In this document: piece after piece, positions 33,396 to 58,633 of the stretch | Layout of the letters: each line of letters opens with the position of its first letter | Numbering within the stretch: the stretch's first letter is position 1 | Source: an uncultured Verrucomicrobiae bacterium | Lineage (GTDB): Bacteria; Verrucomicrobiota; Verrucomicrobiia; Palsa-1439 | Length of the DNA stretch: 64,000 nt | NCBI GenBank assembly: GCA_963812605.1 | Contig: CAWEWF010000014.1 | Location: forward strand, 544,001 to 608,000 | Direction of reading: 5' to 3' | Notes under the pieces: generated by a model | Database searches by the model: none | What the model was told of the DNA's origin: nothing | Seen by the model: only the letters and a program-made list of their open reading frames with translations | Translations under genes and position numbers: made by a program

Positions 33396-34983
33396 ATGCC
33401 AACGCGCTTGAATCCCCGCTGGTTCGTTGCTTTCATCGGTATTGCCTCGCTGGCTCTACCGTCGCGCGCGCCGGCACAAACCGTCATCACCAACACGTTC
33501 GCCGAGGTGTCGCGCATGGCTTCCCTGTGGGAAGTCGATCCGGTACAGATTTCAAGCCTGGCGAACGCGCAATATTCATCGGTTGGTGGCGGCACCAGTA
33601 CATGGCAGTTCATTTTCCCGGCATTCTTGCTCGCTGCCGACGGCGACATCCATGTCAATATGGGGATCGATACCAACGGTACGGGATCGACCAGTGGCAA
33701 CCAGGGCGAATCGCCAATTGTCCCTGAAGTGATCAACGCCACGGCCGCGCAGCTTACGACCATTGATTCGCTTAACGGCTCGCAAACCATCGTGCGAGGG
33801 ATCTTCCGTTGGTATTCCGAACATACCGGCGAACGGAAATACGAAATCCATCCCGCGACCGAACTGCTCAAGTGGAGTGGCAGCGCGTTTGTGTTGACCA
33901 ACGACTACCGGCCAAACATCAAGTTCGACAACGGCAACACTTCGCAGTCCACCCAACACATGATTACCACGTTTGACGGGTCCGACGTGATGACTGCGGC
34001 TGTTATGGTCGCGGACAGCACCAAGATTGTGTTTACCTACCCGAGCCCGAGGTTCAACTACTGCATTTACGACGGCGTCACCCTGTCCGCGCTGACGAAC
34101 GATTTCGTCAGCCAGTATTTCCTGTTGAAGCCAAACCTGGTGCCGACCGCGGTCATCCGCTGCCGGATCGTCACCAATACCATCGCGGCGGCCGTCGCGG
34201 CCGGGTTGGTGTCCAACCAGACTGTCACGGTCAACGCCCTGACCCGTTGCGACCTGCTCGGGGTCTCGAACAAGATCGCTTCGCTGACGGCGGGCCACAC
34301 CAATGTTTTTGCGTGGCCGGTCGAATTCATCACGTTGAACATTACCAATCTGGGGTGGCCGCCGCCGGTGGCAATTTTTAGCGGCAGTCCCACGAACGGC
34401 ACCGAGCCACTGGCGGTGACCTTCACGGACGCATCGACCGGGAGTATCACGAATCGATCTGGGATTTTGGCGATGGCCGCACCACCAACGTCACGACGAC
34501 CACCGTGCTCCACACGTACGCCGCCGGGACGAACACCGTGAAACTGGTGGTCACCGCCCCGGTGGCGTCAACACCAATACCAAGCCGAATTACATCACGG
34601 TGTTGACGGCGTTCCAGGCCTGGCAGGTTCAGTACTTTGGCAGCACAACCAACCCGGCAGCGGCCAATGCCGATCCGGATGGCGACGGAATGTCCAACCT
34701 GCAGGAGTTCCTCGCCGGTACTGATCCCACCAATGGCGCCTCGGCGTTCCGCATCACCAGCGTGGTGCGCGCTGGCAGCGATCTTCTGGTCGCGTGGATG
34801 ACGGGCTCGGCGGACTAACGCGTTGCAATCCACGGCCGGGACGGGCGCTGGCAGTTACAACACGAATGGCTTCGCCGACATCTTCACCGTCACGAATACC
34901 ACCGCGCAGTCACCAACTACCTCGATCCCAACGCCGCCACCAATTTCCCCTCGCTCTTCTACCGTGTCCGCCTCGTGCCCTGA
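33396..34983 (+). CDS. Secreted protein with DGDxH...EIHP domain, PKD domain and C-terminal DPDGDG sorting-type domain (frameshifted 3' part)
   Basis: Signal peptide; ADGDIHV, YEIHPAT; PTNGTEPLAVTFTDASTG..WDFGDG (PKD); ADPDGDGMSNLQEFLAGTDPT...FYRVRLVP*. Confidence 0.75.
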
Positions 34984-35027
34984 GTGTGGTCTGACCGCAC
35001 CTCCGGGAAGTGTATGGATTCCAAGGT

Positions 35028-35129
35028 AGCCGCGCACGGGGTAAGATTGCCAAGGCCAAAGGCGTCTGCAAGGTGGCCGGTGAAGTGGTCAGCGAGGCGG
35101 AAGTGATGTTTAGTGTGGTGGATAGCTGA
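35028..35129 (+). repeat. Orphan duplicate of the fabZ 3' end
   Basis: Aligns without gaps to 32641-32742; RARGKIAKAKGVCKVAGEVVSEAEVMFSVVD identical in protein, with 10 third-position changes. Confidence 0.95.
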
Positions 35130-35146
35130 CGCCGACAGAATTCATG

Positions 35147-35246
35147 TGGAGGGCGAGTCTCCCGGTGAGTGAGGGGATTCACCACGAAGCCACGAAGAGC
35201 ACGAAGGCGGCGCGGATTGAACCACAGAGTCACAGAGGGCGGAGAA
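35147..35246 (+). repeat. Cluster of short REP-like units
   Basis: TGGAGGGCGAGTCTCCCGGTGAG hairpin unit, ACCACGAAG-CCACGAAG-AGCACGAAG and ACCACAGAG-TCACAGAG-GGCGGAG tandems; a similar GCACGAAG-GACACGAAG follows the intact fabZ at 32745-32761. Confidence 0.55.
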
Positions 35247-35344
35247 TTACTTGTGGTGCGAGTGGCTTGGGTGGCAGATCTGTAAATAGTAAAGCGCTGA
35301 CCTTGGCCACGGGTGATTGACTGTAGCCATCTGCAAGAACATAA

Positions 35345-36031
35345 TTGAAGACCATGATAGCGATCAGAAAACTGACGCTTGTAATTTTCCTGATCACAGT
35401 TCTGTTAGGTCTCTGCGTATGGATTTTGGTGCTTGTCCGTGGCCATTCTCTATCGACTCCGTCTGGACAATTGACTATCGAATCGCAGAAACAATTGGAG
35501 TTGGAGGCCGCACGGGAAGCCCAAGCCACAAACGACTGGCTTCCTGTGGTTGTCTCTCGGGGGGACATACCTGCCCGCACTAAAATCACCAAAGATATGT
35601 TGTCATTGATTCCATATCCCAAGGGTTTGATCGCCGATGGTGCACTCCTAGACTACAAGCCGGCTGAGGGTCATTTCAACTTGTTGCCACTCAAAGCCAA
35701 GGACCAAGTCCGCGTGTCCGATCTCCATACCGAAGAGCCGCCTTTGATCCCATGCGACGTTCCCGAAGGTATGCGAACCTACGTCATTAACGATAATGAG
35801 ATCCAAGTGGTGAGGGTTATCATAAAACCCTGTGACCGCGTGGATATTCTAGCAACATATTCCGAACCCGCTAGTCATCAAGAAACCACCCAGACAATCC
35901 TGCAAAATGTCCTAGTACTTATGCAGGGCACGAGTTCAGTGACAGTAGCGGTCAAGCCGGAAGAGGTGGAATTGCTTACGGCAGCAAATCGTGCTGGCAC
36001 CCCCTTGCGCGTGAAACTTCGCGCTCCCTAA
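35345..36031 (+). CDS. Flp pilus assembly protein CpaB-like (SAF + RcpC), orphan, lower GC
   Basis: N-terminal TM, VVVSRGDIPARTKITKDML (SAF), VPEGMR, IKPCDRVDILAT, TQTILQNVLVL, VTVAVKPEEVELL. Confidence 0.8.
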   Translation: MKTMIAIRKLTLVIFLITVLLGLCVWILVLVRGHSLSTPSGQLTIESQKQLELEAAREAQATNDWLPVVVSRGDIPARTKITKDMLSLIPYPKGLIADGALLDYKPAEGHFNLLPLKAKDQVRVSDLHTEEPPLIPCDVPEGMRTYVINDNEIQVVRVIIKPCDRVDILATYSEPASHQETTQTILQNVLVLMQGTSSVTVAVKPEEVELLTAANRAGTPLRVKLRAP

Positions 36032-36261
36032 ATCGATGGAGGTTTCGACGTGGTTGAGAGTCGAGGCAGGCACCTACCCCATTAACTGGTGCGAGGCAGA
36101 AACATCCTCGGTATCGTCAGCCAAAGAATTGAAGTGAATCGTCGATCACCATATGCGTTCACGCCGGGATCTGGTCTCGCAGACTGCCGTAGGCGATGGT
36201 ACGGGCCATCTCCTTGGCATACATGTCGTGCGGGAACCAGAGTTCAATGCGGTCAGCTTCG

Positions 36262-36930
36262 ACAGCAGAGATTTGCCGATACACGACGATCGGCCTCTTC
36301 GAGTTCCGCTTCCCTCAGGATGACAGACTAAGAGTCGAGCACCCGTCCCGAGTCCCCGCCGCGTGGGGCACGCGGCCTACAGCTACAAGGGAATATGCCC
36401 GCTGTATCGTTAATCGATAATTTTGCTGGACGGGGTGATTCCGGGCGGGTATAGTCGGGAAAACGGATGAACATACGGAGTTCAGAATCCAGAAGGCAGG
36501 AGCAGAAGCGGGCGGCAAAGCTCCAGCGAAGGGCGATATTTTAATAAACGGCGCGGCGCGATACCTAAACGACAGGCATCGCACCCTACAAAACCGACGG
36601 CGAGCAGGCGGGAGGGCAAAGCTGCGACGAGTCGCAGCACTCCAGAGGGGGGAGCACGAATCGGGAATACGGAAGGATACAGGCGGGGCGCCTGTTCAAC
36701 GCGAAGACGGAAGGACACGGGCGGGACGCCCGCGCCACTACCAGCGAGGGAAGGAAGTCGTAAAAACATGTGTTTCTGCGAAACGAACCCGATTTGTCCG
36801 CCTGAGAAAACAGCATTTATCCATCGGTGGTACAATGGGTTACGCGATGAAAAGTGAGGGAGTCCAATCGGGTTCGTTTGGGAAAGCCGATTCATTTTTG
36901 AGGGCGGCAACCGGGACGGTCGCCCTACCT
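36262..36930 (+). repeat. Composite non-coding element, copy 1 (head + REP-half stack + IR-71-IR tail)
   Basis: 36262-36472 matches the reverse complement of 47100-47306; tail 36773-36879 matches 46828-46934. Confidence 0.85.
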
Positions 36931-36949
36931 CGGCAGCAAAACCCTTGGA

Positions 36950-36978
36950 TTGACCTGATGAATGGGTTGTTGTACAAA
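36950..36978 (+). promoter_or_regulatory. Putative sigma70 promoter of lpxA
   Basis: TTGACC-N17-TACAAA, 26 nt upstream of ATG 37005. Confidence 0.45.
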
Positions 36979-37004
36979 TGCGGCGGGGAGTGGGGCATCT
37001 GCCC

Positions 37005-37784
37005 ATGACTTCGTTCAAAGTTCATCCTACTGCGATTGTCGATTCCGCCGCTCAGATCAGCGCGGGCTGCGAGATTGGGCCGTATTGTGTCGTGGGGGCG
37101 AACGTGAAACTGGGAGAGGGATGCCGGCTGTATTCGCATGTGGTGATGGACGGGTTGACGACGATTGGGGCGCGGTGCGAGTTTTTTCCGTTTGCGAGCA
37201 TCGGATTAAAGACGCAGGACTTGAAATATTCTGGGGGCAAATGTTACCTGGAAATCGGGTCGGACAACGTCTTTCGCGAGCATGTGACGGTACATACGGC
37301 GACGGGCGACGGCCTTTATACGCGGATCGGGTCGCATAACAATTTTCTGTCATATTCGCACGTGGCCCACGACTGCATCGTTGGTAACCACGTGATTTTC
37401 AGCAATAACGGGACTCTGGCGGGACATGTTGTGGTGGAAGACTTTGCGATTGTTGGCGGGCTGGCTGCGATCCATCAGTTTTGTCGGATTGGGACCATGT
37501 CGATCATCGGCGGCTGCGCGAAAGTGGTACAGGATGTGCCTCCGTACATGATGGCTGATGGTAACCCTGCGGAGACGCGGGGGGTCAACAAGGTCGGCAT
37601 GGAGCGCAATGGGGTGTCGGAGGAGGCCCAGCGGGGGCTGCGGGAGGCCTTTAAGATATTGTGTCGAGCGGGGTTGACAGTGAGCAATGCATTGGATAAG
37701 ATACAGTCAGAACTTCCGCCCAGCCACGAGCTGGAACATTTCATCGACTTCTGTCGCAAGTCTGAACGCGGAATAGCCCGATAG
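37005..37784 (+). CDS. lpxA: Acyl-ACP--UDP-N-acetylglucosamine O-acyltransferase
   Basis: VHPTAIV hexapeptide repeats, TQDLKY, HVAHDC, LAGHV, IHQFCRIG, QDVPPY. Confidence 0.97.
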   Translation: MTSFKVHPTAIVDSAAQISAGCEIGPYCVVGANVKLGEGCRLYSHVVMDGLTTIGARCEFFPFASIGLKTQDLKYSGGKCYLEIGSDNVFREHVTVHTATGDGLYTRIGSHNNFLSYSHVAHDCIVGNHVIFSNNGTLAGHVVVEDFAIVGGLAAIHQFCRIGTMSIIGGCAKVVQDVPPYMMADGNPAETRGVNKVGMERNGVSEEAQRGLREAFKILCRAGLTVSNALDKIQSELPPSHELEHFIDFCRKSERGIAR

Positions 37785-46705: not shown

Positions 46706-46734
46706 ACGTTAATGGCGGGGTGAGTGGGTGTCAA
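46706..46734 (-). promoter_or_regulatory. Sigma70 promoter of gcvTHP (near-leaderless)
   Basis: Minus strand TTGACA-N17-TAACGT, 8 nt before ATG. Confidence 0.65.
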
Positions 46735-46809: not shown

Positions 46810-47306
46810 CGGTGGGTTCGTTCTGGAAAACGAACCCACCGTTTTCCGTCGCCATTTTATTATGCAACTCATTGTGGCCATGTTGGATAACTGCTGTTTT
46901 CCAAGATAAAATCGGTGGGTTCGTTTCGCAGAAACGTATAGGGGGGGTCTTCTTCCTTGCCGTGAGGGCGACATTCTGTCGCGATTCCTCGTCGTATTCT
47001 TTCGCCTCTCCCCTTGGGGGAGAGGGTTAGGGTGAGGGGTGTTCGCAACCTCGCGAAGTGGGCTTGAGAGCCTTCCTCGAATCCTTCTCTGGGTTCAACG
47101 TTCATCTGTTTCCCCGACTATACCCATCCGGAATCACCGAGTCCAGCAGAATTATCAATTACCGATAATCCCTCGGCGTGCTTCCCCAGTAGTTGTAGGC
47201 CGCGTGCCCCCACGCGGCGGGGATTCAGGGTGCTCCTCAGCCCGTCATCCGGAGCGAAGCGAAACTCGAAGAGGCCGATTGTCGTGTATCGGCAAATCTC
47301 TGTTGT
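46810..47306 (-). repeat. Composite non-coding element, copy 2
   Basis: Head 47100-47306 and tail 46828-46934 homologous to copy 1; different REP units in the middle (47005-47039, 46962-46985). Confidence 0.85.
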
Positions 47307-58199: not shown

Positions 58200-58260
58200 C
58201 GGGGCCCGGCATTGTCGATGCAATCTGCCGGCATTTGTTATTTGATTTACATCAGTTTTT

Positions 58261-58622
<362 letters not shown>

Positions 58623-58633
58623 AATGAACGGAC

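Follow-up and report, generated by a model that had tools for sequence, protein, structure and literature searches.

The Correia/NEMIS elements of Neisseria are MITEs: small, non-coding and with terminal inverted repeats, they are found in many intergenic copies near gene starts and have possible promoter or RNA-hairpin side effects on neighbouring genes, all of which applies likewise to the hairpin family described here. In the BIME and RIB/RIP elements of Escherichia coli an IHF site lies between REPs, and these elements, like the family, are inverted palindromic units set in intergenic mosaics. The family also resembles the REPINs of Pseudomonas fluorescens SBW25 and others, which are hairpin-forming REP doublets that RAYT transposases mobilise. 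As outlined in PMC3116915, REPINs are intergenic units of ~100 nt with two highly conserved inverted ends and a spacer that is less conserved but kept in length, in which spacer length and hairpin matter and compensatory hairpin changes are common; they are present in tens to hundreds of copies, are lineage-restricted and are largely vertically inherited. REPs that bear GTAG or CGTC tags (Di Nocera et al. 2013, PMC3733652) differ from the family, which has neither tag and a different architecture.

The window analysed here, a 64,000-nt stretch of the genome of an uncultured member of the Verrucomicrobiia (G000), includes two copies of the repeat in opposite orientation (Table 1). A first-pass annotation had described them as two perfect pairs of 14-bp inverted arms with 71-nt spacers, and both pairs were read directly at the two sites. 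It had also aligned the spacers around GAAAACAGCA[T/G]TTATCCA-N8-ACAATG[G/A]GTT[A/G]C, and this alignment is indeed gap-free, but only when the + strand of copy 1 is set against the - strand of copy 2, a point that had gone unstated. The third arm noticed in copy 2 is present and forms, with the middle arm, an alternative 14-bp hairpin with a 4-nt loop (-23.5 kcal/mol as RNA). When folded, each 99-nt copy has a z score of -3.0 to -5.5 relative to shuffles, with the + and - strands alike. The invariant 16-mers of REPIN group I doublets are given as 71 bp apart from first residue to first residue (PMC3116915), which is a different measure from the 71-nt spacer, and we regard the equal number as a coincidence.

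Table 1. Features of the two hairpin copies and of the promoter-like sites next to them (positions in the window)
Feature	Sequence or composition	Position	Strand	Basis or remark
Copy 1 constant 5' flank	AAAAACATGTGTTTCTGCG	36762..36780	+	Flank type I; signature comparison
Copy 1 left arm	AAACGAACCCGATT (constant AAACGAACCC + variable inner GATT)	36781..36794	+	
Copy 1 interior	71 nt; AT-rich, G+T-rich on + strand	36795..36865	+	Alignment A1
Copy 1 box 1	TTTATC	36816-36821	+	Invariant A at 36819; column conservation
Copy 1 box 2	GTTACG	36839-36844	+	Near-invariant TT at 36840-36841; column conservation
Copy 1 right arm	AATCGGGTTCGTTT (AATC + GGGTTCGTTT)	36866..36879	+	
Copy 1 possible decayed third arm	GGGAAAGCCGATTCAT	36880..36895	+	Weak; by eye against intact third arms elsewhere
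lpxA promoter-like site	TTGACC-N17-TACAAA	36950..36978	+	Outside element, between copy 1 and probable lpxA start
Copy 2 constant 5' flank	CCTATACGTTTCTGCG on - strand	46927..46942	-	Flank type II
Copy 2 left arm, in element orientation	AAACGAACCCACCG on - strand; CGGTGGGTTCGTTT on + strand	46913..46926	-	
Copy 2 interior	71 nt	46842..46912	-	
Copy 2 right (middle) arm	AAACGAACCCACCG on + strand	46828..46841	-	
Copy 2 third arm	CGGTGGGTTCGTTC	46810..46823	-	4 nt from middle arm
gcvT promoter-like site	TTGACA-N17-TAACGT	46706..46734	-	Outside element, between copy 2 and gcvT start (46697, -)

When copy 1 was used to query its own 4.17-Mb genome with BLAST, 88 matches were returned. The arms are far commoner than expected by chance: the exact 10-mer arm occurs 128 times in the genome versus 7 times for the reversed (not complemented) motif, and the arm-spacer-arm pattern was found 45 times versus 0 for its reversal. 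One regex match (C1:224053, 90 nt, GC-rich) was a false positive and was excluded. The 5' signature TTTCTGCG+AAACGAACC, with up to 2 mismatches allowed, is present at 66 sites, of which 51 have a right arm (full copies) and 15 do not (short or solo forms). Most full copies are 97 nt long (30 copies) and the remainder are 99 nt (9), 98 nt (6), 100 nt (2), 96 nt (2), 76 nt (1) or 77 nt (1). We conclude that the two window sites are members of a dispersed non-coding repeat family.

The TTTCTGCG flank precedes the left arm in 51/51 full copies, within the 2 mismatches set by the design of the search, and upstream of it is either AAAACATGYG or CCTATAYG. The unit then continues through AAACGAACCC, 4 nt that vary, ~69 nt of interior, the complement of these 4 nt and GGGTTCGTTT. 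In 25 of the 51 full copies this is followed, after a loop of 3-6 nt, by a third arm, AAACGAACC, which offers an alternative hairpin, and the unit ends in a G-rich tail. The left end overlaps a 5-6-bp mini-hairpin (GTTTC-TGC-GAAAC), and only the 25 copies with the third arm have a right end that is fully palindromic. As the repeated unit also includes the unequal 5' flank and the 3' tail, the hairpin is probably the core of a unit of ~150-190 nt and not the whole element. A small ORF starting at the ATG in the AAAACATG flank, which lies behind a purine-rich tract, was considered and rejected, as the reading frame varies from copy to copy and the ATG is missing from flank type II (by eye).

The short forms (15 sites in G000, for example C1:453391, C3:50882, C4:396467 and C5:391026) have the 5' flank and left arm in common with the full copies. 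Some continue with CCCCAGTTAAC..TTTGCAAG.ACTTAGG, and any right arm in them is decayed. Others look like solo left arms with the G-rich tail immediately after them, which would fit deletion, or failure to insert, of the stretch from the left to the third arm.

The pattern AAACGAASC-N66-90-GSTTCGTTT was found in 15 of the 18 genomes of the genus (G000 included), at 6-140 per genome, and in 0/29 genomes from other genera of the order. The reversed control pattern gave 0 matches in the 18 and 1 in the 29. A covariance model (R1) built from 86 aligned copies found the family in 18/18 genomes of the genus and returned a single weak match (E 1.3e-5) from the 29 others; at most 88 candidates were scored per genome, so the per-genome counts from R1 are minima. 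Of the three genomes without a pattern match, G002 and G005 carry elements of 74-75 nt whose interiors are very alike, and G009 has a 99-nt form ending in GTTC. In most species the element spans 97-100 nt, and in two it spans 74-75 nt. In the G003 group, the arms are AAACGAAGCCAA/TTGGCTTCGTTT, with C replaced by G at arm position 8 and the partner changed to match, and mean interior identity is 66% versus 40% in G000. Four matches in IMG/VR viral contigs, with flanks and interiors that were all unrelated, were read as chance. Apart from the one weak match, the family is confined, among the genomes compared, to one genus of uncultured soil and peat Verrucomicrobiia and is lineage-specific. Titles and abstract openings of the literature on Verrucomicrobia MITEs and on REPIN/RAYT systems describe no such Verrucomicrobia family, and we regard it as a repeat family not described before, which takes up much of the intergenic DNA in this widespread genus.

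The arms were compared in an alignment of 86 copies (alignment A1), from which two wrongly oriented duplicates had been left out. The outer 9-10 nt are almost invariant, and 95.3% of the 1204 cells of the 14-bp stem are paired. Five of the 14 stem pairs never vary and six have changes on both sides. Cells with a double change number 118, compared with 34.3 in column shuffles, a value reached by 0/500 shuffles, although this control overstates significance because the copies are related. Two further lines of evidence are independent of the shuffles. When the partner is slid by one column, pairing falls to 49-56%, and in a second, orthologous copy upstream of lpxA the pair at arm position 8 is C:G in one and G:C in the other of G012 and G004, in a setting where the interior is ~85-90% identical (by eye). 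The first-pass claim that arm pairing is preserved by compensatory changes, made from two copies, is therefore sustained across the 86: the two 14-nt ends are kept complementary, and their outer 10 nt are kept in sequence. The inner arm falls into few matched classes, with CGATT (17), CACCG (12), GGATT (6) and CATTT (5) the commonest among 48 copies.

The interior has a GC content of 43%, compared with 58% for the genome, and is G+T-rich on one strand. Between G000 copies its identity is only ~40%, with length kept. An extended interior hairpin was looked for and rejected, as there is no fixed-register pairing past the 14 bp and the folding of the interior does not exceed that of shuffles (mean z +0.19); the folding advantage of the + strand, seen in 46/48 copies, is due to the G+T-rich composition of the interior. 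Conservation is confined to two boxes, approximately TGnAWC and GTTAnG, that lie at a fixed distance from both arms and are separated by a stretch that is free to vary. One A is invariant (86/86), the two positions of a TT are kept in 79 and 85 of the 86 copies, and the distance from A to TT is exactly 22 nt in 84/86. The first box is mostly TGTAAC, TGGATT, TTTATC or TGTATC. Both boxes persist in the short forms and the 75-nt version. Length and this small two-box core aside, the interior is free, as the alignment shows.

Comparison of orthologous sites revealed that copies turn over as species diverge. Copy 2 has orthologues in G004 and G012, in which the arms, loop and third arm are almost identical and the interior is ~70% identical (by eye). 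Arms that are kept while the interior diverges by ~30% at orthologous sites are not predicted by the simple decay of a dead insertion, which speaks against a MITE/REPIN-like element. At the copy 2 site, G012 has the other 5' flank type and an extra short form is found nearby in G004 only, while a different family member lies upstream of gcvT in G006. Upstream of lpxA, a ~190-nt unit comprising the G-rich tract, 5' flank, hairpin and tail is present in G012 and absent from G004. With the covariance model, an element was found within ~1.5 kb of the orthologous gene in 7/17 genomes for lpxA, 3/17 for rpoN and 2/15 for HSP20, and orthologous retention is mostly in the clade of G000, G004, G006 and G012. 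Copy number, arm variant and length differ by lineage, and orthologous copies have been gained, lost or replaced. The family behaves as an amplifying, recombining sequence population, with lineage-specific variants, bursts, gains, losses and replacement.

Because the REPIN signature of a less conserved spacer, a length and hairpin that matter and compensatory changes matches what is seen here, we conclude that the family is probably a new MITE/REPIN-like non-autonomous hairpin element without a linked transposase. It has the terminal inverted repeats, size below ~300 bp, non-coding content and multiple copies of a MITE, and it forms a hairpin as REPINs do, though only the basal stem pairs. It is not filed as a REPIN proper or as a classical MITE because no linked RAYT, target duplication or parent element was found. 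Unlike in REPINs, a RAYT neither flanks the family nor is linked to it, its two ends do not clearly form separate REP palindromes, self-complementarity does not continue into the interior past the 14-bp stem, the flanks are unequal and constant, and there is no GTAG or CGTC tag. Unlike in Correia/NEMIS-type MITEs, the family showed no target-site duplication, a search of G000 for a parent insertion sequence that shares its ends found none, divergence of the interior is near saturation while the ends are perfect, and the repeated unit runs past the inverted repeats. The first-pass annotation had inferred a selected structure and had named a match to a MITE end as evidence to the contrary. Such a match is in effect what was found, as the two sites belong to a dispersed inverted-repeat element with many copies, although the fixed spacing and arm covariation expected of a selected structure hold as well.

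Several features of the family are sharper than those of textbook MITEs, in that perfect arms surround a near-saturated but length-fixed interior, the few matched arm variants are unlinked to the interior, three invariant bases lie at a fixed phase and a subset of copies is directional. One of these features counts against the MITE/REPIN-like reading, namely that arm class hardly tracks interior identity (41.4% versus 39.3%). A MITE/REPIN-like element would multiply, be lost and recombine within the genomes of one genus. Its ends would act through base pairing between the two arms of one strand. As has been suggested for REPINs, this would most likely be single-stranded DNA in the course of replication or transposition, and the paired-arm duplex would be recognised by a putative enzyme or other protein. 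The family is a good test case for how such sequence populations are kept up and for the possible co-option of some copies as promoters, and its description should be useful for the annotation and assembly of these genomes, as repeats break contigs.

Marks of mobility and a mobilising enzyme were sought. No target-site duplication was seen at the one filled and empty pair (G012 versus G004) or beside the arms of 19 copies in G003, a weak test given that the boundaries of the unit are fuzzy, and no pair of arms at 300-5000 bp encloses a gene in G000 as would be expected of a parent insertion sequence. Five matches to PF01797 (Y1) were found in G000, and the only one flanked by repeats carries GTAG-type REPs. 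At 10 of the 13 loci examined for larger Y1 paralogues, there is no arm within ~1 kb. RAYT-like Y1 genes and the family do not co-occur across the 18 genomes: G005 has a Y1 gene, and G011 and G015 have the family with no Y1 match. These negative outcomes weigh against the MITE/REPIN-like reading. A RAYT/Y1 protein was rejected as the transposase of the family, as no linkage was found. An IS1595-type gene beside one copy was also rejected, as it has no inverted ends of >=13 nt.

The IS1595-type gene (DDE_Tnp_IS1595 plus zinc ribbon; G000:C4:128227-131051) lies between two direct repeats of ~100 nt, each of which contains the third-arm/right-arm end of the hairpin element. A PF01797 match (E 1.2e-6) forms the C-terminal part of a 370-aa frame at G000:C6:70666-71778, the N-terminal part of which resembles D-aminoacyl-tRNA deacylase (by eye). 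The window also includes a second repeat family, at 36563-36592, 36720-36745 and 36905-36930, made up of GC-rich hairpins followed by CCCTAC or CCACTAC, which are GTAG-tagged REPs on the other strand. Many copies of them in G000 flank a RAYT-like Y1 gene (G000:C14:656568-657380), and they are interleaved with the hairpin family in intergenic regions.

The genomic setting of the family was examined using gene positions from a home-made dicodon gene caller, which is crude. By these calls, 62/66 signature sites are intergenic, and the four inside called genes were left out of the context counts. Sites between co-directional genes number 24 with the genes on the element's strand and 15 with them on the opposite strand, and 19 sites lie between divergent and 4 between convergent genes; with 24/39 copies in co-directional pairs pointing along the genes, the orientation bias is weak overall. 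The next gene is a median of ~200 nt away on the right-arm side, compared with 460 nt on the 5' side, which is filled by other small repeats, GTAG-type REPs among them. Orientation agrees with GC skew in 44/66 copies (Fisher p 0.03), but this was set aside as evidence for single-strand transposition because it is too weak and is confounded with gene orientation.

A stronger bias is associated with the third arm. A same-strand gene lies downstream of 22/25 copies that have a third arm and of 13/26 copies that do not (Fisher p 0.006), and in the 22 cases the gene is 52-480 nt downstream. This hints at a host-level role for some copies and counts against a purely MITE/REPIN-like reading. An alternative that would account for it is a regulatory cassette, in which TGnAWC-17 nt-GTTAnG serves an alternative sigma factor of the ECF type as a promoter directed at the right arm, the resulting RNA begins with the middle-arm/third-arm hairpin and runs into the downstream gene, and the inverted arms are the ends of the mobile unit that spreads the promoter. 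We consider this rather unlikely. The invariant A and the TT at a fixed 22 nt, the fixed distance of both from the arms, the free stretch between the boxes and the persistence of the boxes in the short and 75-nt forms are what such a promoter would have, and the arrangement resembles that of ECF promoters of the sigmaH/sigmaE type, given in PMC10012870 as GGAA(C/T), 17-19 nt and GTT. However, while the GTT columns agree with an ECF -10 element (G in 63, T in 79 and T in 85 of 86), strict GGAAY-N17/18-GTT is found in just 2/86 copies, and outside the elements the degenerate two-box motif is not enriched (29 matches versus 93 for the reversed control).

Functions were mixed among the 42 downstream genes that were scanned, the two in the window among them. 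In favour of a cassette, these genes include HSP20, AhpC/TSA, DEAD-box helicases, cyclophilin, rpoN, psd and lpxA, and an ECF sigma gene follows one short form. Against it, no sigma gene was found with its own copy of the motif, copies that lack the third arm are randomly oriented (13 versus 13), only 24/39 copies in co-directional pairs point with the genes, and few genomes of the genus (2-7 of 15-17) retain an element by the same gene. A scan for sigma-70 promoters found none in copy 1 and only one in copy 2, on the opposite strand. That a genus-wide mobile cassette upstream of dozens of unrelated genes is wired to one alternative sigma factor, or to another factor that binds the arms, therefore seems doubtful to us. 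If it were so, the cassette would link stress and envelope genes (HSP20, AhpC, DEAD-box helicases, rpoN, psd and lpxA), and the new transcripts would gain a 5' hairpin from the third arm.

The first-pass annotation had also suggested a folded switch. As an RNA switch, or a processing or stability hairpin, the element would alternate between left/right-arm and right/third-arm stems, which are mutually exclusive, and both the covarying arms and the presence of the alternative hairpin in 25/51 copies fit this, but the left and right arms covary in the inner 4 nt and the right and third arms mostly do not (by eye). The interior has no excess structure, the two strands fold equally and orientation relative to genes is only weakly biased overall. 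Scanning the whole window with the 4227 covariance models of Rfam at gathering thresholds gave no match at either copy, and the region of copy 1 (36650-37000) gave 0 matches at E<=10, in line with the first-pass annotation, which could not assign the structure to a named family. The sole Rfam match in the window at gathering thresholds is a bacterial RNase P RNA of class A (58259-58628, 229 bits). No intrinsic terminator was found at copy 1, while at copy 2 the short third-arm hairpin, which is followed by a T-run on the + strand, is listed as terminator-like and is the only candidate.

The two genes next to the copies each have their own promoter-like site downstream of the element (Table 1), which also speaks against an RNA switch. 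The gene downstream of copy 1 is LpxA-like by Pfam, and its start is probably the ATG at 37005, as orthologues align from residue 11-12 and the longest frame (36978) begins inside the promoter-like -10 box. All 17 genomes compared share, upstream of lpxA, a box of the TTGAC type together with (G)TA(C/G/T)A(A/G)A (printed sequences, by eye). The site upstream of gcvT, the product of which has a GCV_T domain, is conserved in G000, G004 and G012. Contigs from a soil RNA library do cover the constant 5' flank and left arm, and one joins both arms around another interior, but the library may include DNA, and transcript ends are not visible in contigs. Overall, a role as an RNA switch now appears improbable, and caution is warranted in reading the 'conserved hairpins' of these genomes as riboswitches.

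The remaining suggestion of the first-pass annotation, an IHF site in the spacer, is not supported by the comparison of copies. A bent protein-DNA site of the BIME/RIB type, in which IHF or another nucleoid protein binds between the inverted repeats for recombination or DNA organisation, would suit an AT-rich interior (43% GC in a 58% GC genome) and elements that lie in mosaics with other REP-type repeats. The weak core CAA-N4-TTR is present at one fixed position in 26/86 copies and anywhere in the interior in 31/86, compared with 5.4 expected from shuffles. Unlike in BIME and RIB elements, though, the full 13-nt IHF consensus WATCAANNNNTTR is found in 1/86 copies, only the TTA part of the core is conserved family-wide, and in G000 the core is at the fixed place in 7/48 copies. 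Moreover, a protein bound to double-stranded ends would not need the variable inner arm bases to be complementary. We regard a site of this type as highly improbable.

When public sequencing runs were searched, none contained half of the stretch's words. Contigs assembled from the one soil RNA library and three DNA runs pile up on 36702-36835 and represent other copies and relatives. The joint 36792>36868, seen in a contig with both arms around other letters, was considered as an excision and was read instead as another copy.

Around the two copies, some further features were recorded. In the region of about 2 kb upstream of copy 1 (34600-36350) gene calls are few and weak, and the frame at 35354-36031 stands out. 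Just upstream of copy 2 is a small palindrome, CTCTCCCC-N-GGGGAGAG (47007-47031), and palindromes of the same kind precede several other copies in G000.
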